Part shown: one piece after another, positions 5,119 through 50,339 of the stretch | Layout of the letters: every line of letters starts with the position of its first letter | Position numbering within the stretch: position 1 is the stretch's first letter | Made by a program: the position numbers and the translations under genes | Assembly (NCBI GenBank): GCA_002772995.1 | Contig: PFCO01000003.1 | Coordinates: 74,253 to 136,756 of the forward strand | From: Candidatus Niyogibacteria bacterium CG10_big_fil_rev_8_21_14_0_10_46_36 | GTDB lineage: Bacteria > Patescibacteriota > Minisyncoccia > 1-14-0-10-42-19 | Direction: 5' to 3' | DNA: 62,504 nt | The notes under the pieces: model-generated | Told to the model about the DNA's origin: nothing | What the model saw: the letters and a program-made list of their open reading frames with translations, nothing else | The model's database searches: none

Positions 5119-5232
5119 CAACACATACCTCCATATGTAAATTGTCAAAATCAACTCACAGTACCACAAATATACAAAAAAGAAAAGCGCTCCACTTTAC
5201 GGGAGCGCCTTAGATAACACACAAAGGAAACA

Positions 5233-5355
5233 TTAATATTTAAAAATCTGACTTACTGAAAACAAGATAAGCGCTACTATCATACCTGCTATCGCGCAGC
5301 GAATAACCGTTCCGTCTTCCATCTTATATATCGGCCGTATTATTTTTTTAAGCAC
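5233..5355 (-). CDS. Small 40-aa membrane protein (not in ORF track)
   Basis: AAGGAGG-6nt-GTG; MLKKIIRPIYKMEDGTVIRCAIAGMIVALILFSVSQIFKY with one hydrophobic helix; terminator-like hairpin at about 5185-5210. Confidence 0.6.
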   Translation of the reverse strand: MLKKIIRPIYKMEDGTVIRCAIAGMIVALILFSVSQIFKY

Positions 5356-5396
5356 AATGTTCCTCCTTTTTTTCTTAACATTGTAGGGCAATTTTT

Positions 5397-6176
5397 CTAT
5401 TGACGCAAACCGTATCCTTTTCGGAAAAGATAATATACAAGCACCGTAAGACCCGCCATAAGTCCAATAATAATAACAGCTCCAATAATAGCGTGGGACT
5501 CCCGAACGCCTATCATGGAATAACGGATGCCATCGATAAAATAGAAGAACGGATTAAACCGCACGACATGCTGCATAAGTGGTGGCAGCATAGAAATGGA
5601 GTTAAATACACCCCCTAAAAAACTCAGGGGCATAATGACAAATATATTCAGAATGTTGAGGTGTTCAAAATTATCGGCCCACAATGCAACTATAAGTCCC
5701 ACCAAAGAAAATACGACAGAAACAGCTAATACATAAAAAATAAAAAGCCCTGCATGAGATATGTTTGCCGCATGAAAGAATATAGCAATAATAAATATGC
5801 CAAGCCCCACGATAACCCCCCGGAATATACCGCTTACTACATACCCGATAATCATTTCGGCATGCGAAAAAGGAGCTGCAAGTATCTCTTCAATGCTTCG
5901 GGTAAAACGCTGGATATAGAGCGTAAATGCAGTCTGTGAAAATGCGGAAGAGATAACATTCATCATTAAAATACCCGGCAACACAAACTCAATATAGGAT
6001 ATGCCCCCTATTACACTGATGCGCTGCCCGACAATAAAGCCGAAAATAAAAATATACAAAAGCGCGGATATCCACGGTGTCAAAAAAGCCTGCATCGCAA
6101 CGCGAAAAAACCGGTCAGTCTCGCGCCGTATCAGCATATACACACCCATCCAATTTACCTTCATACTACTTTGCAT
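5397..6176 (-). CDS. ABC-2 type transporter permease (YadH-like)
   Basis: Multiple TM helices, YIEFVLPGILMM, FLGGVF, NPFFYFIDGIRY. Confidence 0.9.
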   Translation of the reverse strand: MQSSMKVNWMGVYMLIRRETDRFFRVAMQAFLTPWISALLYIFIFGFIVGQRISVIGGISYIEFVLPGILMMNVISSAFSQTAFTLYIQRFTRSIEEILAAPFSHAEMIIGYVVSGIFRGVIVGLGIFIIAIFFHAANISHAGLFIFYVLAVSVVFSLVGLIVALWADNFEHLNILNIFVIMPLSFLGGVFNSISMLPPLMQHVVRFNPFFYFIDGIRYSMIGVRESHAIIGAVIIIGLMAGLTVLVYYLFRKGYGLRQ

Positions 6177-6897
6177 GATTGCCTGTTATTTCAAAATATT
6201 TTTCTTCTAATGTCTTGCCTCCGTCAAGAAAATCCTCCTTGTCTCCCAGCGCAACCATTTTCCCGCCGTAAATAATGCCTATGCGGCTGCATAGCTTTTC
6301 CACCTCCTCCAGATAATGCGATGTCAGTAAAATAGTTTTTCCGGCCCGATTAAGATCGCGCAGATATCGCCAAATATCGTGCCGCAATTCTACATCCACT
6401 CCTGCGGTGGGCTCATCTAAAATAATCAACTTTGGGTCGTGCACCAGTGCGCGACCCATCATCACTCGGCGCTTCAGCCCCCCTGAAAGCATCCGAAATT
6501 GTTTTTCTGCGTGTTCCTGAAGCTCAAATGTGTGGATGATGTGCGTAACCCGTTTTTTACGCTCATCTCCCCTCATTCCGTAATAGCCCGCCATGTAATC
6601 AAAAACATCTTTTACCTTCATAAAAAGGTCTATGGTAAATTCTTGCGGAGAAAGGCCTATCTGCAAACGCGCATCACGATATTGTTTTTTTACATCAAAT
6701 CCGAATACTGCGATATCGCCCTCAGAAAAATTACTCACCCCGGTAATACACTGGATAGTCGTTGTTTTGCCTGCGCCATTCGGACCTAAAAAACCGAAAA
6801 ACTCGCCTTCTTTTATAGAAAACGAAACGTCGTCCACCGCAAGCGTTTTGCCATACCCCTTGCGTAAATGATTTATAGATAATGCATCTTGTGTCAT
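6166..6897 (-). CDS. ABC transporter ATP-binding protein (YadG-like)
   Basis: GPNGAGKTT, LSGG, ILDEPTAGVD, TSH; start MTQD overlaps the upstream stop (ATGA). Confidence 0.92.
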   Translation of the reverse strand: MTQDALSINHLRKGYGKTLAVDDVSFSIKEGEFFGFLGPNGAGKTTTIQCITGVSNFSEGDIAVFGFDVKKQYRDARLQIGLSPQEFTIDLFMKVKDVFDYMAGYYGMRGDERKKRVTHIIHTFELQEHAEKQFRMLSGGLKRRVMMGRALVHDPKLIILDEPTAGVDVELRHDIWRYLRDLNRAGKTILLTSHYLEEVEKLCSRIGIIYGGKMVALGDKEDFLDGGKTLEEKYFEITGNHAK

Positions 6898-7169
6898 GGG
6901 TTTTTCTTTTCGTATATCCGCTTCCACCAATAGTGCCCCTGCCACCAGCCGAATACGATGCCGGCTACAAATAGAACGCCAGCGCCGATATGGTGTATCA
7001 AGAACCAAATCTCCCAGGAAAATCCCAGGCTAAAGCGCGGGAAGTCCCGAAGAAGAAGCGAGATGTACCACATCTCAACTCCCGCGTGTATCAGCAACTG
7101 AAGGAGACATCCGAGAACAACAAAAGATACAACATACAAGACCCGTTTTATTTGCATTCCTTGTATCAT
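6894..7169 (-). CDS. Small membrane protein
   Basis: Two to three hydrophobic segments; coupled to the ABC ATPase gene. Confidence 0.65.
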   Translation of the reverse strand: MIQGMQIKRVLYVVSFVVLGCLLQLLIHAGVEMWYISLLLRDFPRFSLGFSWEIWFLIHHIGAGVLFVAGIVFGWWQGHYWWKRIYEKKNP

Positions 7170-7217
7170 AGATAATTAAAAACGGCTCGCATAGAGCCGC
7201 TTTTAAACAAGAATCAA

Positions 7218-7445
7218 CTACGCCTGCGCTTGCGGGGCATTTCCCTTCCCCATGCAATGCCTGCAATCTTTCTTGTGGGTGACAAGAAGATATACCGCTG
7301 CAAGACCGACTAATATGTAAATAATTTTTGAAATAATTACATCAGACCCCCCGAAGATAGTCCCTATCTCCCAATCGAAAATTGCAAACACGAGCCAGTT
7401 AAGTCCCCCCACAACAAGAAGGATGAATGAGATTTTATGCAACAT
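7218..7445 (-). CDS. DUF378-family small membrane protein
   Basis: LLVVGGLNW...IIYILVGLAAVY pattern. Confidence 0.85.
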   Translation of the reverse strand: MLHKISFILLVVGGLNWLVFAIFDWEIGTIFGGSDVIISKIIYILVGLAAVYLLVTHKKDCRHCMGKGNAPQAQA

Positions 7446-7495
7446 GCTATTCGAAATATTGTCCCCGACCTTTTCTTATACTGCTGAATAAAAAA

Positions 7496-7990
7496 TTAAT
7501 TAATGGCGAGCATTTCTACCGTAAAAATAAGCGTGGAGTTAGGCGGTATCGCACCCGGGATGCCCCGCTCGCCGTATGCCAGCTCCGGCGGTATAACAAG
7601 TTTCCGCACCTCACCCACTTTCATACCTTCAACGCCCGCATCCCAGCCGGGGATAACTTCTCTCGCACCTAAAATAAACTTGAACGGCGTCCCTCTGTCT
7701 ACGCTTGAATCAAACTTTGTGTCGTTTTCAAGCCAGCCGGTGTAGTGTACCGTTACCACATCGCCTTTCTCCGCACCAATTCCGGTGCCCTCTTTAATAA
7801 TTGCAAATTGCATAGAAACTTCACGAGCTCCGTCTTCAGCAGATGTGTCGGGAGTCGTTTGTTGATTATTACTGGTATCTGTTACCCCGTTGGACGAATC
7901 GGGATTGTCTGCCTGCTGTGGCCCGCGCAACATGTACCATCCAAATGCAACGACGCACGCCGCAACAAGCACCGCAATAAAAATTTTCAT
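7496..7990 (-). CDS. FKBP-type peptidyl-prolyl isomerase with N-terminal anchor
   Basis: VHYTGWL, FDSSVDRG, VIPGWDAG, PPELAYG, IPPNSTLIF. Confidence 0.95.
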   Translation of the reverse strand: MKIFIAVLVAACVVAFGWYMLRGPQQADNPDSSNGVTDTSNNQQTTPDTSAEDGAREVSMQFAIIKEGTGIGAEKGDVVTVHYTGWLENDTKFDSSVDRGTPFKFILGAREVIPGWDAGVEGMKVGEVRKLVIPPELAYGERGIPGAIPPNSTLIFTVEMLAIN

Positions 7991-7996
7991 AGTGTA

Positions 7997-8236
7997 TTAT
8001 ATTCGTCGAATGATAAGATACAAGCCGAGCACAATGAACAATCCCGGCCAAAAAGAGACGCTAAACGATATCCATCCCATCTCCCGGGCAAGAAAAAAGA
8101 GCCCGAGCAAGAGAAAGAATATCCCCCACGAAAGACTGCCGCCCCGGCAACACCAACCGCTGCAGACTTCTCCGTCGTTATGTCGGTGATGAAATATCAT
8201 AGTCATATGATAATGCGAGAGCGCACTTTCTGGCAA
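7997..8236 (-). CDS. Small two-helix membrane protein (LiaF-TM/DUF5668-like); exact start uncertain
   Basis: WGIFFLLLGLFFLA...FWPGLFIVLGLYLI. Confidence 0.6.
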   Translation of the reverse strand: MPESALSHYHMTMIFHHRHNDGEVCSGWCCRGGSLSWGIFFLLLGLFFLAREMGWISFSVSFWPGLFIVLGLYLIIRRI

Positions 8237-8357
8237 GGATAGACATTAAACAACTGGCCATGTGATATTACATACAACATCACACAAAAACTCTGTTCAA
8301 GAGTGATTTTTTATTGTATACTAAAAACCATATCTGTTCTTTGCAAAGGAGATTCTA

Positions 8358-9443
8358 ATGAGAATCGGAGACAATATAACATTCGAAAAAAAAGCGGAAT
8401 TTAGCCGGGAGCTCACGCAAAACGTAGAAGACTATTTCAAAAGAACGGGAGAGAAAAAGAGGGATCATCCGCTCATGTTCCTGAAAGCGGCATTCATGCT
8501 TGCATGGTTCGGAGGCGCGTATTATTTACTCGTTTTTACGACACATACATGGATAGAAGCAATTCTATATACCCTTCTTCTTTCGTTTGCGGCCATAGGA
8601 ATAGGATTCAATGTCCAGCATGACGCAAACCACGGAGCGCTCTCAAGCCGAAAATGGGTTAATTATATCTTTGGCTATACACTTGATATTATCGGCGGCA
8701 GCTCATTCTTTTGGAGAAAGAGCCACAATATAGCCCATCATACATATACCAACATTCAGGGAGAAGATGACGATATTGATTTTGGCATACTTGCCCGCAT
8801 GGCTCCGGATCAGCCACGACGTCGGATGCATGCGTACCAGCATATCTATCTCTGGTTTTTATATGGATTGATATTTTTTAGATGGCATTTTGACTTTAAG
8901 GCATTTAAAAGAAGTTTGTTGCCGTCTTCAAACGGAACGCACATCAATCTTATGGACCGAGTTATGTTTTGGGCAGGCAAGATAATATTTTGGAATCTTG
9001 CGTTCATTATTCCAATGCTGTATCACTCATGGTGGACTGTGCTCGCCTGCTATGCGTTCGGCATATTCAGTATAGGATTTGTAGCGGCAATTATTTTTTC
9101 GCTCGCACACTCTATGAATGAAACGGAGCACCCGCTTCCTAACCCCGAAACACTGCGCATACCAAGCGAATGGATGGTCCACCAGCTCAAAACAACAGTT
9201 AATTTCTCGCCCAACAATCCGTTTTTAACATTTTATCTCGGAGGATTAAACTACCAGGTAGAGCATCATCTGTTCCATCGGATAAGCCACATTCATTACC
9301 CGCGTATCGCGCCCATCGTAGAAAAGACATGCAAAAAATTCGGTATTCGCTACCGCGTGAATAAAACATTCTGGAGCGCAATACACTCTCATTACCTATT
9401 CTTAAAACGAATGGGACAATCTCGGCATATGACATCGCATTAA
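8358..9443 (+). CDS. Membrane-bound acyl-CoA fatty acid desaturase (delta5/delta6-like family)
   Basis: Three His boxes HDANHG, HNIAHHTYTN, QVEHHLF; GGLNYQ; TM helices; AGGAG before ATG. Confidence 0.92.
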   Translation: MRIGDNITFEKKAEFSRELTQNVEDYFKRTGEKKRDHPLMFLKAAFMLAWFGGAYYLLVFTTHTWIEAILYTLLLSFAAIGIGFNVQHDANHGALSSRKWVNYIFGYTLDIIGGSSFFWRKSHNIAHHTYTNIQGEDDDIDFGILARMAPDQPRRRMHAYQHIYLWFLYGLIFFRWHFDFKAFKRSLLPSSNGTHINLMDRVMFWAGKIIFWNLAFIIPMLYHSWWTVLACYAFGIFSIGFVAAIIFSLAHSMNETEHPLPNPETLRIPSEWMVHQLKTTVNFSPNNPFLTFYLGGLNYQVEHHLFHRISHIHYPRIAPIVEKTCKKFGIRYRVNKTFWSAIHSHYLFLKRMGQSRHMTSH

Positions 9444-9605
9444 TGAACACATACCCGCATATTTATGCGGGTTTTCTATTGTGTACAAAAGCCTGGGATG
9501 ATGTATAATGGGCTAATTGCTGGACTTAACGAGTATGCCGGCACATACGACCTACTCTACAAGTTTGCTTACAGGTCATAATTATTAATCAAATCATACA
9601 TTACA

Positions 9606-9785
9606 GTGGCTTACGAAGACGACAAGCGCCCTATGGAGCGCAAAATGTATCAAGGCAACTGGAAATGTTCAAACTGCGGAGGCGACATCAAGGAGCTCCC
9701 GTTTGAACCGGACCCTGCGCGCATGGACAAACTCCAGTGCAGAGACTGCTACCGGCAGAACCGTCCACCACGACGCCGATACTAA
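9606..9785 (+). CDS. CxxC-x~20-CxxC zinc-ribbon small protein (not in ORF track; start GTG 9606 or ATG 9633)
   Basis: MERKMYQGNWKCSNCGGDIKELPFEPDPARMDKLQCRDCYRQNRPPRRRY; TG-TATAAT at 9502-9509; terminator at 9792-9820. Confidence 0.8.
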   Translation: MAYEDDKRPMERKMYQGNWKCSNCGGDIKELPFEPDPARMDKLQCRDCYRQNRPPRRRY

Positions 9786-9791
9786 ACAGAC

Positions 9792-9820
9792 AAAAAAACC
9801 CGCGTAACGCGGGTTTTTTT
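9792..9820. terminator. Intrinsic terminator
   Basis: AAAAAAACCCGCG-TAA-CGCGGGTTTTTTT. Confidence 0.85.
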
Positions 9821-9872
9821 GTTTCTTCCAAAATACTTGCAAGGCATAAAGTCATATTGCATAATATGAACC

Positions 9873-10343
9873 ATGCCAAAAAAACAAGCGGTACGAAAAT
9901 CAAAATACTCCCTTTCTGTAAAACGAAGCAAGACGGGTCTCGGTCTTTTTACTAATGATTACATCAAGCGAGGGTCTTTTATTATTGAATACTTCGGTCC
10001 CATTATTACCAATGAGGAAGCGGATAAAAATAACGGCAGATATCTTTTTGAGTTAAATTCGCGCTGGACAGTGGATGGCATATCGCGTAAAAATATCGCA
10101 CGATACATCAATCACTCCTGCCGGCCGAATTGCGAAGCGGATGTTGTGCGGAGACATATTTTTATCTACGCAAAGCGGAACATTAAGCCTGGAGAGGAGC
10201 TTTCGTATGACTATGGAAGAAGTTATTTTAATGATTATATAAAACCCTATGGGTGTAAGTGCCCCAAATGCCTAGAAAAAAAGGCGCCGTATTCCCGTCA
10301 CCACCATATCAAGACCCACCGCTCCTATAAAAAATCCGCTTAA
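9873..10343 (+). CDS. SET-domain protein-lysine methyltransferase
   Basis: GLGLF, ARYINHSCRPN, GEELSYDYG, post-SET CKCPKC. Confidence 0.92.
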   Translation: MPKKQAVRKSKYSLSVKRSKTGLGLFTNDYIKRGSFIIEYFGPIITNEEADKNNGRYLFELNSRWTVDGISRKNIARYINHSCRPNCEADVVRRHIFIYAKRNIKPGEELSYDYGRSYFNDYIKPYGCKCPKCLEKKAPYSRHHHIKTHRSYKKSA

Positions 10344-10880
10344 CCGAAGCAATATCCCCATAACCTTATCAAACGCAACTTTTAATTTCTTGGAAAACAG
10401 CTCCCTCAGCATCATGAGAACGAAAATACAGATGTAATTAATGAACAATATCAAAAAAAGCACGGAGAAGCCCTCCATTGCGTTAAATTCAGACCCTATC
10501 AGTATGCTTACGGAAATCGTGCCTGCTCCCACAAAAAATGGGAGCGCTATTTCTGAGGCAAGGTCATCAAGGCTCTCTTTCATGCCTAATAGCGCCAACC
10601 GCCCCTGCACCACAAACAAAAACGCTTGCGCAAAGATAATAATTCCTCCAAATATTCTGAAGGATTCAAAATGTATCCTAAAAATATCCTCAAATAAGAA
10701 TGTGCCGGTAAGTGAAAATATATAAAATATCAAAAATGAGATAAGCGACGCTTTCGCGAGCACAATTAAGAAATCTTTCCGCGAGAGCGCGGACATGACC
10801 GGCTGTAAATACAAAAAAAGCGCGAACGGATTGAGAAGCGCAAGAAAAGCAAGAATATAGGCACTGGAAGACGAAAACAT
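10272..10880 (-). CDS. MarC-family membrane protein
   Basis: ALLNPF, SFRIFGGII, PFFVGAGTIS, RLSGFFIGAVG. Confidence 0.8.
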   Translation of the reverse strand: MFSSSSAYILAFLALLNPFALFLYLQPVMSALSRKDFLIVLAKASLISFLIFYIFSLTGTFLFEDIFRIHFESFRIFGGIIIFAQAFLFVVQGRLALLGMKESLDDLASEIALPFFVGAGTISVSILIGSEFNAMEGFSVLFLILFINYICIFVLMMLRELFSKKLKVAFDKVMGILLRLSGFFIGAVGLDMVVTGIRRLFF

Positions 10881-10888
10881 GGAAGGTA

Positions 10889-12193
10889 TTATAAATCTCG
10901 GAGATACCCCCAATTGTGGAGCTTATCGCTATCCTCAAACCACCTATCCGCAATGTCTTTACGGTAATACATATTCGGCATCATGATATTTTTTATCCGG
11001 TTATACGCCTGCACCTTTGCCTGCTTCATGGTTTGACCAATACCAACCACTATCAGAACAACCCCCGATGTTCCGGTGATAACCCATTCCCCATTCACCT
11101 CTTTTACATCTTCTATATGAATGCCATCGCGCTGCGGTTTTTTAAAAAAGATAACCGCGTCTTTTGAATTTATTTCGAATGTTTTGATATCCCGATAGAA
11201 TGGAAACGGCGGAACAACCAGACGAACGCCTACCTGAAAGCCGCTCCGGGTACGGAGTTTTACTTGTTCGCCCGCGGCAAGCTGATATAAAAATTCTCCA
11301 ATCGGATTGAGGATGCCTTCTTGCTGGATGCTTATCGTGGGATACCCGAAGCGTGCCGTAAACTCCAGCGGGTAAATGCCATTCGCATTCACGATACAAT
11401 TAAGGTCCATGTAGCCGACATATCCCTCTTCGGCAAGCCTGCTTTCCATTTTTTTAAGCGTACTGTTGAATATCTTGTTTGGAGCGCTCCAAAACATGCT
11501 TGTTCCCATCTCTCCTGTTGAGGGCCCTATATCTCCAGGAAAAAGTTTTTTGTGCTCAAAATTGACATTAATGGGATATATAAATTCTTTACCGTTAAAA
11601 AAGGCGCCCACCCCAACCTCAACGCCAACCACCCGCTTTTGCAGCAAAAACAGTTTTATTTTTTTGGACAACGATTTTTTATACGCCTCAAGAAGCTGGA
11701 CGACATCCCGCCCGTCATCTTCTTCACCGACAAACAGAAGCTGTTTGATATTTTGTGCATCCAAACTTGATTTGATGACATAGCGTCCTGGGTTTGTTTT
11801 TACATAATTGACTGCTTCGTCAAAGGAAGAAAAGCTTTGGTAGGGCAAAATAGGAACGCCTGCTTTTTTGAGTTCTTCCTGTCCGAATGAACGATCATCT
11901 TCAAGCATGTCGGTATAGGCCGTACCCCCAACCACCAGCTTGCCGTCTTTCCGGAGCTTTTGAGCCTTTTTACCCATCCCCAGCACATCATCAAAGACAA
12001 CAACATCTGCCCATTCTACATCCTTCTGCCAGTCGTCCGTTTTTGGAATAAATCCATCACCAATATCCTGGTCGGGAGTAGACTCAATATAATAGCGGGC
12101 ATCATGCCCCTCCCTGATTACCTGCCAGGCAATATCAGTGATAAGGCCATCTATGGATACGAAAAGGAATTTTTTCTTGACAATACCATTCAT
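10889..12193 (-). CDS. PurD-like (phosphoribosylamine-glycine ligase family) ATP-grasp enzyme
   Basis: EHKKLFPGDIGPSTGEMG, LEFTARFGYP; start moved to MNGIV. Confidence 0.8.
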   Translation of the reverse strand: MNGIVKKKFLFVSIDGLITDIAWQVIREGHDARYYIESTPDQDIGDGFIPKTDDWQKDVEWADVVVFDDVLGMGKKAQKLRKDGKLVVGGTAYTDMLEDDRSFGQEELKKAGVPILPYQSFSSFDEAVNYVKTNPGRYVIKSSLDAQNIKQLLFVGEEDDGRDVVQLLEAYKKSLSKKIKLFLLQKRVVGVEVGVGAFFNGKEFIYPINVNFEHKKLFPGDIGPSTGEMGTSMFWSAPNKIFNSTLKKMESRLAEEGYVGYMDLNCIVNANGIYPLEFTARFGYPTISIQQEGILNPIGEFLYQLAAGEQVKLRTRSGFQVGVRLVVPPFPFYRDIKTFEINSKDAVIFFKKPQRDGIHIEDVKEVNGEWVITGTSGVVLIVVGIGQTMKQAKVQAYNRIKNIMMPNMYYRKDIADRWFEDSDKLHNWGYLRDL

Positions 12194-24735: not shown

Positions 24736-26175
24736 TTATGGGAAAATGCCTTGGTCAAGATAGCACTGCCCTATCTTAGTGATCGCCAAAAAGTATGCCG
24801 CCGTACGCAAATCTATTGTGTCGGAGTATTCTTTCTGTATGACGCGCATCTGTTCAAATGCGGGGATCATCGTTCCTTCAAGGCCGGAAATAACGAGGTC
24901 TTCTTCCGTTGAAAGCCGAGTGACATGTTCTATTCTATTCGGGTCTATTTTTGTATGCGTCTGCTCTTCAACGACAGCCAAAATATTCTGAAGCCGCGCC
25001 TTATCAAAACGCCTGTCTATCTGTCCGAATCCGATATGATTACGGTTCTTAAGCCACTCAAAATATGACACGATAACGCCGCCGGCGTTCAGAAAAATAT
25101 CTGGAACAATCATTGCTCCTTTGCTGAATAATATATCATTTGCGTAAGAACTGGTCGGTCCGTTTGCCGCCTCCCCCACAATCTTTGCTCGTATCTTGTC
25201 CGCATTGAGATGCGTTATCTGGTTTTCAAGCGCTGCGGGAATTAGTATGTCGCAATCAAGCTCAAGGATATCCGAGATGCGCCGTACATTTTTCGTTCCA
25301 GGGAATCCCTTCAGTGTGCCGTGTTCTATGCGGAAGAGCATTGCATCATCAAGCGGAATACCTTTTGCCGAATGAATCGCGCCATCAATCTCGCCCAGCC
25401 CAATAATAATCGCGCCGTTTGCTTCTAAAAACTTTGCTGTATGATACCCGACATTCCCGAGCCCCTGAACAATCACTCGCTTGCCCTCAAGCCCGCAGGA
25501 AAGCCCGAGACGGCCCATAATATCCGGCTGGCTGCACACCTCGCGAAGACCGATAAACACGCCCCTGCCGGTCGCGGACACGCGCTCGCGAAGCCCTCCG
25601 ATAGATATCGGCTTCCCCGTAACGCACGCTGAAGGATTCGGGTCATCATCCGAAGCAAACTGCTTGTAGGTATCGAATATCCATGCCATTTCTTGCGAAC
25701 CGGTCCCATAGTCAGGCGCGGGGACGTCTTTTTCGGAATGAAACACTTTGTGGATATGCGTAAACGTATATGTATAGCGGCGTATGATTCGTTCTATTTC
25801 TGACGGAGAAAAATCTTTTTTGCTTCGTATGCGTATCGTCCCTTTTGCTCCGCCAAATGGCACATCGGCGAGTGCGCACTTGTATGTCATGAGCGCAGCA
25901 AGCGCGACTACTTCATTCTCATCCTGAGCGTCTTCTATCCACCGAAAATTAATACCCCCCTTGGTAGGAAGCTTGTGATAACTATGCCGCGCACGATACG
26001 CATCTATGTTCATAATGCTGCCGTCATCTCGTTTAACGGGCATACTCTCGTGGATAAAGCTGTTACATCGCTTAATCTGCCGCAAAAGACCCGGCTGATC
26101 TTTTTCAAATCTGGTCAGCTCAGCTGCCTTATCAAAGTAGCGGTTTACTTCTTCAAAAAACTTGTAATCGGACAT
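24736..26175 (-). CDS. gdhA: NAD(P)-dependent glutamate dehydrogenase, animal-like type with antenna-like insertion
   Basis: PTKGG, MTYKCA, PFGGAKG, DVPAPD, VTGKP, ATGRG, QGLGNVG, EAANGP, LNAGGVIVSYFEW. Confidence 0.92.
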   Translation of the reverse strand: MSDYKFFEEVNRYFDKAAELTRFEKDQPGLLRQIKRCNSFIHESMPVKRDDGSIMNIDAYRARHSYHKLPTKGGINFRWIEDAQDENEVVALAALMTYKCALADVPFGGAKGTIRIRSKKDFSPSEIERIIRRYTYTFTHIHKVFHSEKDVPAPDYGTGSQEMAWIFDTYKQFASDDDPNPSACVTGKPISIGGLRERVSATGRGVFIGLREVCSQPDIMGRLGLSCGLEGKRVIVQGLGNVGYHTAKFLEANGAIIIGLGEIDGAIHSAKGIPLDDAMLFRIEHGTLKGFPGTKNVRRISDILELDCDILIPAALENQITHLNADKIRAKIVGEAANGPTSSYANDILFSKGAMIVPDIFLNAGGVIVSYFEWLKNRNHIGFGQIDRRFDKARLQNILAVVEEQTHTKIDPNRIEHVTRLSTEEDLVISGLEGTMIPAFEQMRVIQKEYSDTIDLRTAAYFLAITKIGQCYLDQGIFP

Positions 26176-43874: not shown

Positions 43875-44624
43875 TTATGCAAGAAGAAGCGACGCTTTGT
43901 AGATATAAAAACGCACTAACCGCGAATCAAGCTCATTCTCTTCGTTGCGCAGTCTTCCTTGCGCATCAATATTTATGTCGGGGAAATCCGTAAGAAGCGG
44001 CTCTAGAAGATCTAATGAATGAGGTCCAAGACCGCCGGCAACGCCAAGACCGATATCGTCCATCTTGTCTCTTATAGCAAGAAGGATGTGCCGGGCGCGC
44101 TCTGCGTCAAACGGCTTGCCGCGGCCTCCGCTCGAATCAAGCAGTATAGCGTCAACCACGCCCCGATACTCAGTAAGGATGCTGGATACCATAAACGGCG
44201 TGCCCGCTGATTCAACAGCGTGCCGTCCAATTTGAAGGACAATGTAGCATTCGCCGGATACTTTTTCTTTGTATGTCCTTAATTGATCGATGCTGGGCCA
44301 TGTCATATTAAGCTGGAATCCGTGAATATGCTCTCCTCCAAGCCTATGAATAGCAAGCATGTCATCTGCTATTGAGTGTTCTTGCCCTTCTTCTGTGCTG
44401 AAGTGAACCAAATTAAGCGCTCGAGCATCGTCTATAAAAATATTTTTGATGTCCTGCGGGTCTGGTGTTTGCTTTGCCCATATCGGCTTCATGGGTATGC
44501 CCCGCAATGATTTCCATGTGGCGAGTACGCCAACCATAAGCTTTCGGTTATTGCCCTTATATGCCTCAAGTGCGGCAGAAACTTCTTCTCGCTTTGAAAA
44601 GCCGGTAACGCCTATGTAACTCAT
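43875..44624 (-). CDS. Hypothetical TIM-barrel protein (TrpF-like fold suspected)
   Basis: LLDSSGGRG, GVAGGLGP, IDAQG; GGGGG before MSYIG. Confidence 0.6.
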   Translation of the reverse strand: MSYIGVTGFSKREEVSAALEAYKGNNRKLMVGVLATWKSLRGIPMKPIWAKQTPDPQDIKNIFIDDARALNLVHFSTEEGQEHSIADDMLAIHRLGGEHIHGFQLNMTWPSIDQLRTYKEKVSGECYIVLQIGRHAVESAGTPFMVSSILTEYRGVVDAILLDSSGGRGKPFDAERARHILLAIRDKMDDIGLGVAGGLGPHSLDLLEPLLTDFPDINIDAQGRLRNEENELDSRLVRFYIYKASLLLA

Positions 44625-44709
44625 TGTGAGTCCCCCATTTTTAAAGGTCTTGAGTGTATTGTATGAAAACAATCTTATCAATGCAGTATAAAAAAGCAAG
44701 CACTTTTTG

Positions 44710-44741: not shown

Positions 44742-44847
44742 CTCTTTGTATTCTTTCGTCGGGCCGCCGAGAATCGAACTCGGTCTACATGCACCCCATG
44801 CATGCGTACTGCCGGTATACTACGGCCCGACGAAAGAATACAAAGAG
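44742..44847. repeat. 18-bp perfect inverted repeat flanking tRNA-Pro (44742-44759 / 44830-44847)
   Basis: CTCTTTGTATTCTTTCGT vs ACGAAAGAATACAAAGAG. Confidence 0.95.
44759..44829 (-). tRNA. tRNA-Pro(GGG), CCA not encoded
   Basis: CGGGCCG/CGGCCCG acceptor, CATGC-ATGGGGT-GCATG anticodon arm, CCGAG-TTCGATT-CTCGG, A73. Confidence 0.95.
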
Positions 44848-44982: not shown

Positions 44983-45011
44983 AAAAACGGCTCTTCTAGA
45001 AGAGCCGTTTT
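44983..45011. terminator. Terminator at the end of the ALDH gene
   Basis: AAAAACGGCTCTTC-TA-GAAGAGCCGTTTT. Confidence 0.8.
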
Positions 45012-45015
45012 GTTT

Positions 45016-46578
45016 TTATTTTTTCTTTTCCGTAAAACGGATGCCTTGTGCAAGCTCCATAACACCCGAGTAGTTCGTAGCTCCGCCGCTTTCACGCACA
45101 TAATTACGCCACGCATCCCCTCCGGCCTCTCTCCCCCATCCGGTATCATAATTACCGCCAAACGGAGTAGTTGATTCAGCGCCGCTCGTTCCACAATTAA
45201 TGTTTAGTATCCCCGCACGAGAACCTTCCGGTCCCCGGAAATGATACATTGCGCTTATTTTTTCAGTAAAAAGCGCAGCCGCTAACTGTTGCGGCGCTTC
45301 ATTAGCAAGAGATATACCTTCTTCAAGGCTGTCTATCTCTGTTATATACAATATCGGACCGAATGTTTCCTCAAGAGCTATGGGGAGATTTTTTCCTTTT
45401 GGCATGCGCACAACAGTAGGCGCTACAAAACATCCCCGTTCGTGCATACGTTCGCCGCGAATAAGTATTTCTCCTCCCTGCTTTTCTGCGATTGCCGTTG
45501 CCTCCAGGAATTTCTTAACTGCCGATTTGTTTATAAGAGGGCCCGCAAGGGTTTTTTTGTTCAACGGATTTCCAAAATGAGCCCCTCCGCAAAGATCAAG
45601 AAACATGCCTATAAACAAGGAGTATCTGTCTTTGTGGACATAGATACGCCGTGTTGTCGTGCATCGCTGCGCGGTCGTTCCGATAAATCCGAAAAATGCA
45701 GCCTGTGCGGCAAGATCAATATCTGCATCATCAAGAACAATCATGGGATTATTCCCGCCAAGCTCAAGCAACGAACGCCCAAGCCGCGCCCCCACAATCT
45801 CCCCCACTCTCCTACCAACGCGCGTAGAGCCAGTAAAACTTATGAGGTCGATGTTTTTGTCGGCAATCATCCTTTCGCCAATAATAATATTGTCTCCGAT
45901 AACGAGCGCAAGCACACCCTCGTGTCCATATTTTTTAAGAACACGATTGCATATGCGCTGTATTGCTATCGCGCAAAGCGGCGTTTCGAGTGAAGGCTTC
46001 CACACAACAACATTGCCCGTTACGAGCGCTATAAGCGCATTCCACCCCCATACCGCTACCGGAAAATTAAATGCGGTGATGACTCCGATAACGCCGAGGG
46101 GATTATACCACTCTCCAAGCGCATGCCGCGCGCGCTCGCTATAAAATGAATGTCCATTCTTGCCGCGTGAAATACCTGACGCCACCTTTTCAAGATCTAT
46201 GATTTCTTGGACTTCACCCTCGCCTTCGCGCCGTATCTTTCCCATTTCAAGTGCAATAAGACTGCCGAGATCTTTTTTGTGCCGGATAATGCTGCGCACA
46301 ATTTCCCGCACAATAAGCCCGCGCTTTGGCGCAGGCACCATGCGCCATGTGAGAAATGCATCCTTTGCTTTTTCGATGACAGCGTTGTAGTCACTGCTCC
46401 CCGCCATTGTTACCTGCGCAATCATTTCGCCCGTTGAAGGGTTTATGGAATCAAGCAACGCGCCATCTGTGTGCTCCCGCGCGGAGCCCGCCCATGCGCC
46501 GGGATTTATATTCTTAATCCCGAGACGCTCAAGAAATGCATATGTTCCCTTCTGTATGTGTTTTTCTGTCTTGCCCAT
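45016..46578 (-). CDS. Aldehyde dehydrogenase family 7 (aminoadipate-semialdehyde/P6C dehydrogenase-like)
   Basis: ITAFNFPVAV, WKPS, FTGST, LLELGGNN, QRCTT, ETFGPIL, TSGAE, FGG. Confidence 0.9.
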   Translation of the reverse strand: MGKTEKHIQKGTYAFLERLGIKNINPGAWAGSAREHTDGALLDSINPSTGEMIAQVTMAGSSDYNAVIEKAKDAFLTWRMVPAPKRGLIVREIVRSIIRHKKDLGSLIALEMGKIRREGEGEVQEIIDLEKVASGISRGKNGHSFYSERARHALGEWYNPLGVIGVITAFNFPVAVWGWNALIALVTGNVVVWKPSLETPLCAIAIQRICNRVLKKYGHEGVLALVIGDNIIIGERMIADKNIDLISFTGSTRVGRRVGEIVGARLGRSLLELGGNNPMIVLDDADIDLAAQAAFFGFIGTTAQRCTTTRRIYVHKDRYSLFIGMFLDLCGGAHFGNPLNKKTLAGPLINKSAVKKFLEATAIAEKQGGEILIRGERMHERGCFVAPTVVRMPKGKNLPIALEETFGPILYITEIDSLEEGISLANEAPQQLAAALFTEKISAMYHFRGPEGSRAGILNINCGTSGAESTTPFGGNYDTGWGREAGGDAWRNYVRESGGATNYSGVMELAQGIRFTEKKK

Positions 46579-46685
46579 ACAGAGCCTCCTTGCTTATATA
46601 TATTTTCAAACCGCAACCAGTCTATCATATAATATGGGATAAATCTACAAAAAATCCGCCATATATAATATGGCGGATGTAATTT

Positions 46686-48083
46686 TTATTTCTTGTATAC
46701 GAGCTGATATGCCTCAATAAGCGACTGAGCAAGCGCGTTACCGCATGTCGCTATCTCCTCTTTTGTGACAATAAGCGGAGGCATAAAGCGTATTGTCGGA
46801 TTTATGTTCGGATTCCCGGCGGAAAGCGTAATAATACCGTTCTCACGCAGACGCGCAAGCGTTGCATCGCGTAATGCCACATCAGCAACATAGCCGTCCG
46901 CTTTTTTATTAAATACCTGGAACTCAATGCCGTAATGCAGTCCGATTCCCTTAAGTGCAATATTGTGTACGGGATATACAACGCCGGGCTCCGCAAACGC
47001 ATAGAAACGGTCCATCGCCCCCTCAAGCGCATTTTTCAAGTGTCCACCCATATCACGCGCCCGCTCAATAAGATGATATTTCTCAAATATCATCATCGTT
47101 ACGATAGCATTAAACACCGCGTGCGGATTCCACTGAAATGTACTTGAGTCCCATCCAACAGCCAATCGTTCATCCCACCCCCGTAACGCTGGATTTTTTG
47201 CATTAAAGAGCGCTGCGCCTATCGGATCACCGCCTCCCATTGCTTTTGAGACAGTGATGATATCCGGAACGATGTTGAAATTCTCATAGCTCAACCATGC
47301 GCCGGTACGCCCGAATCCTTCCTGCACATCATCACACACAAGAATGACGCCGTTATCCTGCAGATGCTTTAACAATTGTATTGTATATTCATTAACAGGA
47401 TTTACTCCGCCTTCTCCTTGTATGAGTTCGAAAATAATAAACGCATAATCCCTCAGGGGAATATAATTCAACTCCCGCATAACAAGCGCTAATGTGTATT
47501 CGTCCCGCACAAACGACAGATGTTCCATGGTATGACCGCCAATACTAAATCCTTGGCGCTGTATCGGCTTGGCATAGGTACATCCGAGCGCGCCCCCCTG
47601 CCGTCCCTGGAACGCCCCCTTGAAAGCGAACGCGAATTTTTTTTCGGGATACAGCTTGTCTATAAACTTTATCGCGGAATTATTCGTAGTCGCGCCTGAT
47701 ATCTGCTGGATAAAACGCGTATCATCCCCAAACGCTATTTCTTTCAATCGCTCTGCAAGCGCCGGCTGTGATATCTCTACCTTCTTCCCATCTATTGAAA
47801 CAACGTACTGGAAATGAAAATCGGTAGCTATGAGATACCATGGCACTGATTCCTTCTCTATAGTTTCTAGTAATGATTTGTAGGCAGCAAGCCAAAACGG
47901 GTGATTGTGTCCGATGTTAGAAACGCCCGCCTGCGAACAAAAATCAAGATACTCTTTCCCGCGTTCATCGCGGAGCAAGCATCCCGTGGCACCCGTAATA
48001 ATCAGATTGTCGTTATAATCAATTGTGGTCGGAGTAAAACAGCCCCAATAACGATCAGTAAATTTTTTTACCGCTGTCTTCAT
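46686..48083 (-). CDS. Class III PLP aminotransferase (omega-amino acid: Orn/Lys/GABA type)
   Basis: YLDF, AFQGR, ELIQGEGG, DDVQEGFGRTG, DIITVSKAMGGG, IRFMPPL. Confidence 0.9.
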   Translation of the reverse strand: MKTAVKKFTDRYWGCFTPTTIDYNDNLIITGATGCLLRDERGKEYLDFCSQAGVSNIGHNHPFWLAAYKSLLETIEKESVPWYLIATDFHFQYVVSIDGKKVEISQPALAERLKEIAFGDDTRFIQQISGATTNNSAIKFIDKLYPEKKFAFAFKGAFQGRQGGALGCTYAKPIQRQGFSIGGHTMEHLSFVRDEYTLALVMRELNYIPLRDYAFIIFELIQGEGGVNPVNEYTIQLLKHLQDNGVILVCDDVQEGFGRTGAWLSYENFNIVPDIITVSKAMGGGDPIGAALFNAKNPALRGWDERLAVGWDSSTFQWNPHAVFNAIVTMMIFEKYHLIERARDMGGHLKNALEGAMDRFYAFAEPGVVYPVHNIALKGIGLHYGIEFQVFNKKADGYVADVALRDATLARLRENGIITLSAGNPNINPTIRFMPPLIVTKEEIATCGNALAQSLIEAYQLVYKK

Positions 48084-48195
48084 TGCATTTCACCTCTCTT
48101 TTTAATGTTCTGAGTACACCCGAGTGTACCACAAAAACGAGCTCAAAAAAATCGCGTTTTTTACTACGCGATTTTTGAAAAAAGAAATCAACTTT

Positions 48196-49164
48196 TTATA
48201 TCATTTTTTTGAATTCTTCTACCATCGGCACCTGTTCCGGCTCAACTTCATACGCAAGCGCAGTATTGAGTGCTGCGAAATCCGCTACAAGCAGGGACGA
48301 GAAGGCTTTCTCCCAGTTGTTTTTTCCCTCTATTATTATTTCATCAACGCCAAATCCGCGCTTTTCATATAATTGTCTGCACACATCCATGCGTTTTTGT
48401 ATCCGCGGATCATCATTCAAATCTTTTAAAAAAATAAAATGGAACGGTTCATTGAGAGGTGCGGTTTTGCCCGTATTTTCAAAACCGGTCATTTCGTTGT
48501 GATTCAACTCCGGAAATGTGTTGCAAAATGCCGGTATCTTTCCCGTCTCATTAAACTTTATTTTCCAATTATATGCTATTGCCGCATGCGTACGGGATGA
48601 ATAAATAACAGGCACTTTTCCTCGAAGCGCACGAGCCAAGCGCCTTCCTTCTTTTTCTGCTTTTTTTGTATCAAGACGCTCGTGAAGCGCTTCGGTCTGG
48701 GTGAGTTCTTCGTCCATACCAAGAAGCTTCATGAGGGCGCGCACATGGAACCCGAGAGCCATTCGCGGCTGTATGTCGATGTGCGGCAACTGGACAAACG
48801 CTACCCCCTTCTCTTTTGCACGCAGAAGAAGCTTTCCTCCTGTCGTGATAACCGCCAGAAGCGCTCCCCGCTTTTCTGTAACATCAAACGCATCAAGCAC
48901 CTCCTCGGTGTTTCCCGAATATGAATTACAAATCACAATGCTTTCACGAAGGATGTCGTCGGATATAGCAGGCAGCCCGTAATCCGTGTGCACCATGATA
49001 TGTTTTTCGGGGCATATCGATGCCATAATGTCAGCGGCCAAATGAGACCCACCCATGCCGACCGCTATCGCATGCTTTACATAGCCTAATGAGGCTTCGT
49101 TTTCTACAACGGGAGCATACGAAAATTGCTCCGGAAATCCGTCTATTGCTTCTTTTATTCCCAT
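48196..49164 (-). CDS. Bifunctional phosphoglucose/phosphomannose isomerase (SIS domains)
   Basis: GMGGSHLA, SYSGNTEE, QPRMA, NETGK, PELNHNE. Confidence 0.9.
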   Translation of the reverse strand: MGIKEAIDGFPEQFSYAPVVENEASLGYVKHAIAVGMGGSHLAADIMASICPEKHIMVHTDYGLPAISDDILRESIVICNSYSGNTEEVLDAFDVTEKRGALLAVITTGGKLLLRAKEKGVAFVQLPHIDIQPRMALGFHVRALMKLLGMDEELTQTEALHERLDTKKAEKEGRRLARALRGKVPVIYSSRTHAAIAYNWKIKFNETGKIPAFCNTFPELNHNEMTGFENTGKTAPLNEPFHFIFLKDLNDDPRIQKRMDVCRQLYEKRGFGVDEIIIEGKNNWEKAFSSLLVADFAALNTALAYEVEPEQVPMVEEFKKMI

Positions 49165-49253
49165 ATCACTTCATTGTATCACTTTGAAAAAATGAAAAAA
49201 ATAGCGTATTATGGATGTGGCTTACATTCAAAAACAAAAGAGAGGTGGCTCTC

Positions 49254-50228
49254 ATGAAAAGATATGCCTACACCCCAAAACAAGTTATTCTGGTAGACCC
49301 GGTATACTTCCGGGTGCGTAAAGAAAACATACACGACAACCGCATGATACAGCCGGACGAAAAGAGACTCCGCACACAAGCAACAGCGATATACAACATG
49401 TACGCAAATCTGGGAACTCGGGTGTTGTTCGTCCCTCCTCATAAGTATCTTGAAAGCCTTATTTATCCGGCAAACAGCTTTTTTGGACATCCCGATCCAC
49501 AAAAAAAAGAAATCATTCTTTCAAATATGCTCCTAGATACGCGAACCCACGAACCGGAAGAAATAAAACAATGGTTTCCCATTGCGGGCTACAATATCTA
49601 CATCATACCGCGGATACTCCACAAATCACCGGACGAACAAGTAGAGATGACCTTTGAGGGATTTGGCGACCTGCTCCCTGGGAGAGATATGTGGTTTGCG
49701 GGCATTGGAGAACGCACCACACAAGAAGCAGTGGAATATGTTTCAAAACAATTTGGACTTGAGGAAAAAAAACCAATCGCCTATCTCCGCCTGGTGAATC
49801 CCTATTTCTATCACTTGGATACCTGCTTACTGTCGCTTCGATACACAAACCACTTGATATATTACCCAGGTGCATTTGATAAGCGCACGATAGGATTTTT
49901 ACGAACCCTTGAGTGCGAGCGCTATGAGGTAAGCGAACATCTCGCAAAAGATTATCTTATCTGTAACAGCGTTCCATTTGGCAAGATTGTTATCCTGAAT
50001 GCGCCTTTCGGAGGAATTTCAGAAAAATCTATGCTGAGAAGCGCTCAGGGCATCCTCCTCTCAAAAACGGACAGGCGTTTCAGGGAAATAAAAGAACGCT
50101 CACACGAATATGCGGATTTTATCGAATATCTATGGAGTGTGGGGTACGGAACAATACCTGCATACACCTCAGAGGTCCGCAAAGATGGTGCCGGCATTTT
50201 CTGTCTCTCAAATTTTGTACACCTCTAA
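49254..50228 (+). CDS. Amidinotransferase/pentein-fold hydrolase (DDAH/arginine dihydrolase-like)
   Basis: YPAN, FEGFGD, FYHLDTC, YYPGAF, C-terminal GAGIFC. Confidence 0.8.
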   Translation: MKRYAYTPKQVILVDPVYFRVRKENIHDNRMIQPDEKRLRTQATAIYNMYANLGTRVLFVPPHKYLESLIYPANSFFGHPDPQKKEIILSNMLLDTRTHEPEEIKQWFPIAGYNIYIIPRILHKSPDEQVEMTFEGFGDLLPGRDMWFAGIGERTTQEAVEYVSKQFGLEEKKPIAYLRLVNPYFYHLDTCLLSLRYTNHLIYYPGAFDKRTIGFLRTLECERYEVSEHLAKDYLICNSVPFGKIVILNAPFGGISEKSMLRSAQGILLSKTDRRFREIKERSHEYADFIEYLWSVGYGTIPAYTSEVRKDGAGIFCLSNFVHL

Positions 50229-50232
50229 AAAC

Positions 50233-50260
50233 AAAAATCCCCTTTCGTAAGGGGATTTTA
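50233..50260. terminator. Bidirectional terminator
   Basis: AAAATCCCCTT-TCGT-AAGGGGATTTT. Confidence 0.85.
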
Positions 50261-50265
50261 TTATG

Positions 50266-50339
50266 TCCGCTCAGTAGGAATCGAACCTACAACCGTCTCC
50301 TTAAGAGGGAGCTGCTCTGCCTGATTGAGCTATGAGCGG
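50266..50339 (-). tRNA. tRNA-Lys(CTT), CCA not encoded
   Basis: CCGCTCA/TGAGCGG acceptor, CTCTTAA loop, GTAGG-TTCGATT-CCTAC. Confidence 0.95.

Follow-up and report, generated by a model that had tools for sequence, protein, structure and literature searches.

Why should a bacterium with a genome of about 0.8 Mb keep a hydrolase of the pentein superfamily, a class III aminotransferase and an aldehyde dehydrogenase of the ALDH7 family within about 5 kb of each other? Bacteria of the candidate phyla radiation (CPR; Patescibacteria) are usually seen as fermenters with almost no amino-acid metabolism. The genes lie at positions 45016-50228 of a stretch of 62,504 nucleotides, called the window here, which is C4:74253-136756 of its source genome, Candidatus Niyogibacteria bacterium CG10_big_fil_rev_8_21_14_0_10_46_36 (G000; 826,912 bp, 11 contigs, completeness estimated at 98.7%). 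The nearest public proteins carry only the labels 'MAG ... bacterium' or 'Candidatus Sungbacteria'. The gene content described by a first-pass annotation of this DNA is all there, and the four genes are intact. On the minus strand lie the ALDH7-family dehydrogenase (45016-46578; 520 residues, Pfam Aldedh 400 bits), the aminotransferase (46686-48083; 465 residues, PF00202, Aminotran_3, 187 bits) and a phosphoglucose/phosphomannose isomerase (PGI/PMI) with SIS domains (48196-49164; 322 residues, PF10432, 136 bits). The fourth gene, for a stand-alone pentein with FYHLDTC, YYPGAF and a C-terminal cysteine (49254-50228, plus strand, 324 residues), is transcribed divergently from the other three.

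The answer put forward here, to which we give about an even chance, is that the locus encodes a module for the catabolism of basic amino acids, leading from arginine through ornithine to a semialdehyde, and probably handling lysine as well. The pentein would hydrolyse free L-arginine to ornithine, two NH3 and CO2, with no gain of ATP. The aminotransferase would then transfer the side-chain amino group from ornithine, and probably also from lysine, to 2-oxoglutarate, yielding a semialdehyde and glutamate. The resulting alpha-amino-omega-semialdehydes would be oxidised irreversibly: ALDH7, using NAD(P)+, would convert aminoadipate semialdehyde (AASA) to aminoadipate and maybe also act on glutamate semialdehyde (GSA), and GSA/1-pyrroline-5-carboxylate (P5C) would be turned into glutamate by a RocA-like enzyme, by ALDH7 or by both. 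An enzyme resembling glutamate dehydrogenase (GDH) would regenerate 2-oxoglutarate. In net terms, scavenged arginine would yield glutamate, ammonia and NAD(P)H, and lysine would yield aminoadipate. In what follows, codes with G denote genomes (G001 and G002 share the genus of G000, and G004 represents a sister genus of the same family), and L numbers denote the loci or contigs examined, metagenome contigs included.

What does the pentein do? In the numbering of a 337-residue version of the protein with a 5' extension, discussed below, FYHLDTC occupies residues 198-204, YYPGAF follows downstream, and GAGIFC lies near the C-terminus with Cys330. Among PDB structures, the only significant sequence matches are to AgrE/ArgZ (E 5.6e-17), the next being an arginine deiminase at E 0.34. 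The AlphaFold2 model, computed from a 26-sequence alignment (pLDDT 93, pTM 0.92), was compared with known structures by Foldseek. All ArgZ/AgrE entries ranked first (best E 7e-18, TM 0.85 on target), followed by DDAH at about 1e-12 and then by amidinotransferases, NnhA, AstB and arginine deiminase (ADI). The probability was 1.00 for ArgZ, AgrE, DDAH, amidinotransferases, AstB and ADI, which places the model within the five-module alpha/beta propeller fold of the pentein superfamily, the family of enzymes that modify guanidino groups. By sequence and predicted fold, the protein is closest to the cyanobacterial arginine dihydrolase ArgZ/AgrE, in line with the first-pass annotation, which had cited that enzyme as a known source of ornithine. 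Its scores against the family models are low. The top NCBIfam model is DdaH-Mtb (NF045659; 87.2 bits, cut-off 300), and the arginine dihydrolase model NF052232 gives 75.6 bits (cut-off 450), NF052231 71.3 bits (cut-off 1025) and Pfam DDAH_eukar (PF19420) 20.5 bits (cut-off 23).

The active site is intact. In pairwise alignment, an N, R, E, R and H of the pentein fall on Asn71, Arg90, Glu118, Arg139 and His168 of Alr4995, and the nucleophilic cysteine, equivalent to C264 of ArgZ/AgrE, is located in the C-terminal module. In the alignment of homologues (A1; 324-residue numbering), C317, H187 and E135 are invariant and D189 nearly so; both carboxylate-binding arginines are likewise invariant and the asparagine nearly invariant. 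Asn71 presumably has a part in the ArgZ/AgrE reaction, as PDB titles suggest (that of 6juz names an N71S mutant with a trapped intermediate). The conserved carboxylate-binding arginines suggest, by analogy with DDAH and ArgZ, that the substrate is a free alpha-amino acid. The CPR subgroup also has some 45 extra residues, modelled as three helices, ahead of the last module. A HMMER search of 1.8 billion representative sequences returned only seven proteins at E < 1e-30, which makes the window's pentein an unusually divergent member.

The same fold and the Cys/His/acid triad would also suit an amidinotransferase, which would convert arginine and an acceptor to ornithine and a guanidino compound, leaving the aminotransferase and ALDH7 to clear ornithine as a co-product. 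SxtG, AGAT and StrB1 are indeed among the fold matches (E 1e-10 to 1e-8), and ornithine would be a product here too. We regard this explanation as hardly credible, since the similarity to ArgZ/AgrE in fold and sequence is much stronger (E 7e-18), the amidinotransferases matched, at about 340-360 residues, exceed the pentein in length and give poor superpositions (rmsd 7-9 Å), and no conserved acceptor-related gene lies nearby.

If the pentein releases ornithine, the next question is whether the aminotransferase would use it. The gene is the sole PF00202 gene in the genome, and its 187 bits against a gathering threshold of 30.5 bits make the product a class III enzyme. Its best NCBIfam model is PRK05769, 'acetylornithine aminotransferase family' (199 bits, cut-off 552), and by BLASTP it lies nearer to PRK05769-type enzymes (131-144 bits) than to Lat or ornithine aminotransferase (OAT; 67-86 bits). 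An identity as Lat was ruled out by a partial match of 64.3 bits to TIGR03251, whose cut-off is 520.8; the RocD/OAT model TIGR01885 (cut-off 378.4) is not among its 25 best models, of which the lowest listed scores 114.7 bits. Among PDB entries, 7vno matches best (about 30% identity, 139 bits), and we take it to be PH1423 of P. horikoshii. The lysine that binds pyridoxal phosphate (SKA), the DDVQ of the DxxQ motif and the C-terminal arginine of IRF-PPL align with 7vno and 1vef. PH1423, TK2101 and the archaeal ornithine/lysine omega-aminotransferases and racemases probably fall in the PRK05769 group. Close homologues with 40-58% identity form a small clade that looks like CPR, and the next relatives share about 31%. 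By these sequence comparisons, the aminotransferase is related to the PRK05769 group but has diverged very far from it. Both PH1423 and TK2101 of T. kodakarensis are tabulated as ornithine delta/omega-aminotransferases that accept L-ornithine and L-lysine with 2-oxoglutarate (PMC9986279). The same archaeal group also includes amino-acid racemases, which are close paralogues within the same archaeon (PMC6047364), so that the reaction is not fixed by homology alone.

The dehydrogenase belongs unambiguously, by its sequence, to the ALDH7 family. Its best PDB matches are antiquitin, human ALDH7A1 and bacterial Pcd (E 1e-122 to 1e-133), with other aldehyde dehydrogenase families at about 1e-75. The best NCBIfam model is that of L-piperideine-6-carboxylate dehydrogenase, NF050084 (561.5 bits, cut-off 730; next model 290), on which the ALDH7 of G004 scores 703 bits. 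PMC11362210, citing Luo and Tanner, names Glu121, Arg301, Thr303, Phe168, Trp175, Gly461, Ala462 and Phe468 as the aminoadipate contacts of human ALDH7A1. In a HMMER alignment to the human chain 4x0t (chain numbering offset +2), all eight of these residues are identical in the window's enzyme, as are the catalytic Cys302, Glu268 and Asn167. The identity of all contact residues indicates a pocket of the AASA dehydrogenase type. The same enzyme may also take GSA, which is one carbon shorter; no literature testing ALDH7 on GSA was found. In a quick maximum-likelihood tree, the CPR copies linked to an aminotransferase (G000, G002, L039 and L043) form one clade on a long stem (0.59, SH-aLRT 100), and those of G004 and G083 group apart from it. 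The deep forks are unsupported, and the tree does not resolve the origin of the CPR copies.

Do these enzymes keep company in other genomes? The first-pass annotation had made its proposal depend on their co-occurrence in relatives, and the neighbourhood is conserved there in several arrangements. Of 401 sampled genomes, all of one class, 39 have the pentein and five have ALDH7, a rare gene. Three other genomes of the same family were searched, and two of them have pentein, aminotransferase and ALDH7 in a cluster, as do metagenome contigs. In G002, the order is MgtE, ALDH7, aminotransferase, a 264-residue open reading frame (ORF) and PGI/PMI, with a divergent pentein. In G001, the pentein is divergent from an amidohydrolase-PGI/PMI-aminotransferase series, and the contig ends after the aminotransferase; identity with the window's proteins is 37% for the pentein, 28% for the aminotransferase and 57% for PGI/PMI. 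G004 has a rocD-type OAT (TIGR01885, 366 bits on a 297-residue fragment cut by the contig end) and then the pentein, divergent from ALDH7. On L039, the pentein is divergent from aminotransferase-ALDH7 without PGI/PMI; on L045, it is divergent from amidohydrolase-PGI/PMI-aminotransferase-ALDH7; and L043/L044 carry aminotransferase-ALDH7 followed by a GDH-like dehydrogenase of the Glu/Leu/Phe/Val (ELFV) type.

Two pairings recur in these arrangements. Pentein and aminotransferase are adjacent in G000, G001, G002, G004, L039 and L045, and in three further CPR families (represented by G067, G211 and G036) a PRK05769-like aminotransferase always stands directly beside the pentein. Aminotransferase and ALDH7 are co-directional neighbours in G000, G002, L039, L043/L044 and L045. 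The recurrence in relatives and on unrelated contigs, with varied gene orders, takes the clustering beyond chance. Indeed, with the pairing present in four families, even though kin are not independent, and with non-orthologous aminotransferases in the same slot, it is hard to ascribe to chance.

A sceptic could still hold that no functional module exists, and that genes of unrelated processes have simply been inherited side by side within one small lineage. The cluster examples belong mostly to one family (f1) or to its metagenomic relatives and are not independent, hairpins stand between the genes, and PGI/PMI shows that unrelated genes do sit in the block. Order and orientation nevertheless vary (G000/G002, G001/L045, G004, L039 and L043) while the enzyme types stay together, the aminotransferase slot is filled by non-orthologous enzymes (rocD-type, or about 28% identical), and aminotransferase-ALDH7 pairs recur in Thermodesulfobacteriota. 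Mere shared descent is for these reasons very unlikely.

The neighbours of ALDH7 in other phyla, for which the best 80 of at least 599 loci were examined, bear on the choice between ornithine and lysine. The gene most often found beside ALDH7 is that of Lat, in 9 to 10 of the 80 loci. In three Thermodesulfobacteriota-like genomes (L142, L136 and L151), an aminotransferase of the PRK05769 type is found directly upstream of ALDH7; the two that were scanned, on L142 and L136, score 632-634 bits, above the cut-off of 552. L142 (Thermodesulfobacteriota, 5229-9521) reads bona fide NADP-GDH, aminotransferase (634 bits), ALDH7, and L136 (Syntrophobacterales, 5510-12098) reads EamA transporter, aminotransferase, ALDH7, 2-oxoacid:ferredoxin oxidoreductase. 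An uncultured bacterium has an OAT-ALDH7-Lat operon (L152:6593-10791), which suggests that one ALDH7 can serve both the ornithine and the lysine route. Furthermore, OAT lies near ALDH7 in the Gammaproteobacteria L092 and L145, and on L092 (Acidiferrobacterales) it forms an arginase-OAT pair with PutA alongside. Judging from their gene content, the operons on L152, L142 and L136 suggest that ALDH7 serves more than the classical Lat route. None of the 80 loci showed a pentein in the vicinity of ALDH7; the L152 operon is preceded by two unannotated ORFs, which were considered as hidden penteins and rejected (hhalign probability < 1%).

The lysine alternative that the first-pass annotation had mentioned is, for the ALDH7 step, at least as likely as the ornithine route, in view of the conserved contacts and of Lat as the commonest partner. 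In its exclusive form, the aminotransferase and ALDH7 would act like Lat and Pcd, and the pentein would have a function of its own, for instance as a hydrolase resembling DDAH or a deiminase, or in supplying ornithine to some other process. The preserved ALDH7 pocket, the widespread Lat-ALDH7 pairing and the acceptance of lysine by PH1423 and TK2101 fit this explanation, as do the divergent transcription of the pentein and its occurrence, in most CPR genomes that have it, without aminotransferase or ALDH7. However, the aminotransferase is not of the Lat family (64 against 520.8 bits), pentein and aminotransferase adjoin in four CPR families (the adjoining enzyme of G004 being a bona fide OAT), and citrulline would be left without an onward enzyme. 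Moreover, no enzyme using aminoadipate was noticed, though no search was aimed at one. A lysine-only pathway therefore appears doubtful, and a module shared by the two amino acids is still preferred.

The rest of the genome narrows the possible fates of arginine. Neither ornithine carbamoyltransferase (OTC) nor carbamate kinase was found in this 98.7% complete genome, nor were arginase and P5C reductase. The ADI pathway, with ATP from citrulline, was rejected for want of OTC and carbamate kinase, the conversion of ornithine to proline for want of P5C reductase, and the arginase route for want of arginase. Without OTC, carbamate kinase and arginase, an enzyme forming citrulline would lead nowhere, and the genome shows no second way of making ornithine. 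An actinobacterial precedent for pairing a pentein with OAT, cited in the first-pass annotation, proved to be real: growth of M. tuberculosis on arginine needs Rv2323c, which lies in the roc cluster with the OAT gene rocD, and its biochemical reaction was not established in that study (PMC4569260). The idea that the pentein makes the substrate of the aminotransferase draws on this genetic evidence, on the recurrent adjacency, on the OAT in the corresponding slot of G004 and on the missing citrulline-using enzyme.

Which enzyme, then, oxidises the semialdehyde? That the aminotransferase and ALDH7 genes stand side by side and point the same way in five CPR loci, and in Thermodesulfobacteriota as well, argues for a transfer of the aminotransferase product to ALDH7. 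The first-pass annotation had gone further and let ALDH7 replace RocA/PutA in a pathway from arginine through ornithine and semialdehyde to glutamate. Its ornithine part gains from the rocD-type OAT of G004; its use of ALDH7 as a stand-in does not survive the inspection of contig C5, where a split PutA-like pair is found outside the window (C5:174958-177870 of G000; L163:1471-4386). There, a 417-residue protein matching the proline dehydrogenase part of PutA (117 bits) is encoded directly upstream of a RocA-like aldehyde dehydrogenase of 553 residues at C5:174958-176616. The best models of the latter, PRK03137 (287 bits) and TIGR01237 (268 bits), are those of L-glutamate gamma-semialdehyde dehydrogenases; it aligns with them end to end but under both cut-offs, and the two proteins of the pair are very divergent. 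RocA-like genes occur in five of the 401 sampled genomes (G000, G001, G002, G004 and G083), and four of the five ALDH7-bearing ones have them (G000, G002, G004 and G083). ALDH7 hence fills no RocA/PutA gap, and the two dehydrogenases coexist in what is a rare lineage with a richer metabolism.

The strictly linear version of the pathway, with ALDH7 as a dedicated GSA dehydrogenase in place of RocA/PutA, can nonetheless point to the canonical rocD-type OAT and pentein of G004, back to back with ALDH7, and to the ELFV/GDH-like gene after aminotransferase-ALDH7 on L043. It can also invoke the OAT genes that share an operon with ALDH7 on L152 and lie close to one on L092 and L145, and the long stem of the ALDH7 clade, which could mean a changed specificity. 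Weighed against the proline dehydrogenase-like and RocA-like genes, which leave nothing to replace, the unchanged ALDH7A1 contacts and the frequency of Lat beside ALDH7 in other phyla, it is unlikely. The more economical reading is a shared module, because ornithine and lysine are both substrates of the characterised relatives of the aminotransferase, ALDH7 has a pocket of the AASA type and a RocA-like enzyme is available for GSA; the arginine and lysine routes would then probably share the aminotransferase.

For the last step, the GDH gene to which the first-pass annotation had assigned the fate of glutamate is real but divergent (24736-26175, minus strand, 19 kb away; 315 bits on the archaeal model GdhA_Arch, cut-off 750). 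By analogy with the ELFV dehydrogenase after aminotransferase-ALDH7 on L043/L044 and the NADP-GDH before that pair on L142, arrangements on which the proposed recycling rests, it is a candidate for returning 2-oxoglutarate to the aminotransferase.

PGI/PMI, in contrast, is probably a housekeeping passenger. It scores above the cut-off for PF10432 (136 against 24.5) and just below those for TIGR02128 (212.6 against 213.9) and NF006423 (225 against 254). The genome has no second PF10432 gene, and no classical PGI (PF00342) was found in it. Across relatives PGI/PMI is 57-64% identical, while pentein and aminotransferase are replaced there or down to 28-37%. It is missing from the pentein-aminotransferase-ALDH7 cluster on L039 and was not seen on L043, which begins 380 bases upstream of its aminotransferase. 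As the genome's sole PGI of any type, orthologous in relatives and missing on L039, it was rejected as a member of the pathway. The pentein, aminotransferase and ALDH7 of the G000/G002 lineage were observed to be much more divergent from their nearest family models than their counterparts in G001, G004, G034 and G067. Their divergence, set against a PGI/PMI in the same block that is not divergent, points to accelerated evolution of the three enzymes together.

Several observations weigh against the proposed module. A dihydrolase and an M. tuberculosis-type DDAH are not separable by sequence alone (76 and 87 bits), and the scores of pentein and aminotransferase against family-specific profile models are far under the curated cut-offs. 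From gene identities, intact catalytic residues and conserved clustering, all of which are observed, we infer every substrate. In G067, G211 and G036, aminotransferase and pentein are convergent, not operonic. The flanks of 32 pentein loci not examined before were fetched (up to 7 kb per side, less on short contigs); about 25 of these genomes have neither aminotransferase nor ALDH7 there, and several such penteins adjoin secA. The ALDH7-bearing CPR genomes G083 and G063, the latter 55% complete, gave no pentein match; within 10 kb of their ALDH7 no pentein or aminotransferase was found, the neighbours being tRNA synthetases, TatD and a second aldehyde dehydrogenase. In the window itself, terminator-like hairpins part the PGI/PMI, aminotransferase and ALDH7 genes. 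Finally, the genome yielded no amino-acid permease of the APC type.

The transcription signals deserve closer description. The hairpin between the aminotransferase and ALDH7 genes (46654-46678, minus strand) has an 11-bp stem and a T run, and that after PGI/PMI (about 48150-48180) was read directly from the sequence. Because of these two hairpins, the co-directional trio may not form one obligatory transcript. A palindromic terminator-like hairpin lies downstream of ALDH7 (44984-45011), and a bidirectional one stands between the pentein stop codon and a tRNA-Lys (50234-50259), both without an assigned strand. The first-pass annotation had described the genes as led by Shine-Dalgarno sites, and such sites are present: AAGGAGG before the ALDH7 gene, GAGAGGTGA before the aminotransferase gene and GAGAGGTGG before the pentein gene. 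A pentein start at 49215 did not hold, and the start is almost certainly the ATG at 49254. A promoter-like site (49184-49212, plus strand; TTGAAA-17-TATTAT in a consensus scan) has a -10-like element that ends at 49212, just before 49215; promoter-like sites are no more numerous in the region than in shuffled sequence and are weak evidence, and this one was used solely as an argument against the start at 49215. The ribosome-binding site GAGAGGTGG is positioned upstream of the later ATG, the gene caller's database product (P0001) has 324 residues, and the same-genus homologue shows a TGA in the match over residues 1-337 and none from about residue 17 on, so that the stop lies within the 13-codon 5' extension. 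These four points together support the start at 49254.

Some further features of the surroundings may be recorded. A tRNA-Pro(GGG) gene (44758-44829, minus strand) lies just 3' of the ALDH7 terminator, and the tRNA-Lys(CTT) gene (50265-50339, minus strand) just 3' of the pentein gene. Between MgtE and the tRNA-Pro locus, an ORF of 274 residues (43875-44699, minus strand) matches nothing in Pfam or NCBIfam; translation probably begins at an internal methionine about 25 codons in, and the ORF is missing at that position in G002. Two genomes of other CPR families have a different context: in G034 (L034:4274-9599), the pentein gene is directly upstream of secA in a murB-hpf-pentein-secA block, and in G038 (L035:493-4171) it is also directly upstream of secA; neither locus has a metabolic partner in view. 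A metal-dependent amidohydrolase of 371-383 residues is encoded directly beside the pentein at L033:1701-2837 (G001), L045:1158-2309 and L072:7953-9068 (G345). It matches NCBIfam PRK06886, a 'hypothetical protein' model, is cytosine-deaminase-like and is without a homologue in the window's genome. The 264-residue ORF between aminotransferase and PGI/PMI of G002 was considered as a remnant of the PRK06886-like amidohydrolase of G001/L045 and rejected, as the two show no similarity. The pentein gene of G004 (L032:918-1829, contig C10) seems to be rearranged: along the gene, profile positions 5-195 come first, then 241-275, the cysteine module, and last 186-235, with a TAA inside this last match. 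Such an order might stem from a shuffle akin to circular permutation, from decay of the gene or from faulty assembly.

The superfamily of each enzyme is known, and so is the pathway logic, from arginase/RocD/RocA, Lat/Pcd and ArgZ. New are the combination of an ArgZ-like pentein with a PH1423-like aminotransferase and ALDH7, its occurrence in so small a genome (about 0.8 Mb), the repeated pairing of pentein and aminotransferase across Patescibacteria families and the strong divergence of all three enzymes from curated families. No literature joining Patescibacteria, arginine and ornithine aminotransferase was found. A more specific proposal, offered tentatively, is that Patescibacteria combine a stand-alone, insertion-bearing relative of the dihydrolase with a PH1423-like aminotransferase in an ATP-independent conversion of arginine to glutamate, which would be the first dihydrolase pathway outside cyanobacteria, and that in this lineage a single ALDH7 acts on both GSA and AASA, a dual role that the OAT-ALDH7-Lat operon of L152 would likewise imply. 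The toolkit of pentein, omega-aminotransferase, ALDH7, proline dehydrogenase-like and RocA-like enzymes and GDH-like enzyme could turn scavenged arginine, lysine and proline into glutamate, ammonia and reducing power. If this is true, arginine dihydrolase activity is not confined to cyanobacteria, penteins of the poorly understood Rv2323c type gain a testable function, and ALDH7 enzymes beside ornithine-pathway genes become candidates for a broader semialdehyde specificity. Known biochemistry would not be overturned; a familiar pathway would have been re-assembled from non-orthologous parts.

How does the locus compare with known systems? The best sequence and fold match of the pentein is the N-terminal domain of ArgZ/AgrE from the cyanobacterial ornithine-ammonia cycle (PDB 6juy, 6jv1 and 6lrf). 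Both have the pentein fold, the Cys264/His168/Glu118 triad and the equivalents of Asn71 and Arg90/Arg139. In contrast to ArgZ/AgrE, to which it is 22-25% identical, the window's pentein stands alone, without the fused C-terminal ornithine cyclodeaminase domain (the gene ends at 50228, followed by hairpin and tRNA-Lys), and has the insertion of about 45 residues. The ornithine is here proposed to go to an aminotransferase and not, by cyclodeamination, to proline. The mycobacterial roc cluster (Rv2323c, rocD) likewise has a DDAH/ArgZ-like pentein beside a class III aminotransferase, but the window's aminotransferase is not of the rocD type, which was seen only in the sister genus (G004), and an ALDH7 is attached.

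On the lysine side, the Lat and Pcd pair, which converts lysine to alpha-aminoadipate, is also made up of a class III aminotransferase next to an ALDH7-type dehydrogenase, and the contact residues are kept. The window differs in that its aminotransferase fails the Lat model, its ALDH7 reaches 561 of the 730 bits required and a pentein is attached. The closest characterised relatives of the aminotransferase that can be named are the archaeal PH1423 and TK2101, with which the catalytic Lys, Asp and Arg align at about 30% identity (7vno). The arginase pathway, RocF-RocD-RocA in Bacillus or arginase-OAT-PutA, follows the same logic from arginine through ornithine and semialdehyde to glutamate, but the pentein step proposed here would give ammonia and CO2 instead of urea, and the RocA-like gene is unlinked, on C5. 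Lastly, the uncharacterised operons of Thermodesulfobacteriota (L142, L136 and L151) join the same type of aminotransferase to ALDH7, adjacent and co-directional, with a GDH on L142 as on the CPR contig L043. Unlike the window's enzyme, their aminotransferases pass the PRK05769 cut-off, and no pentein accompanies them.

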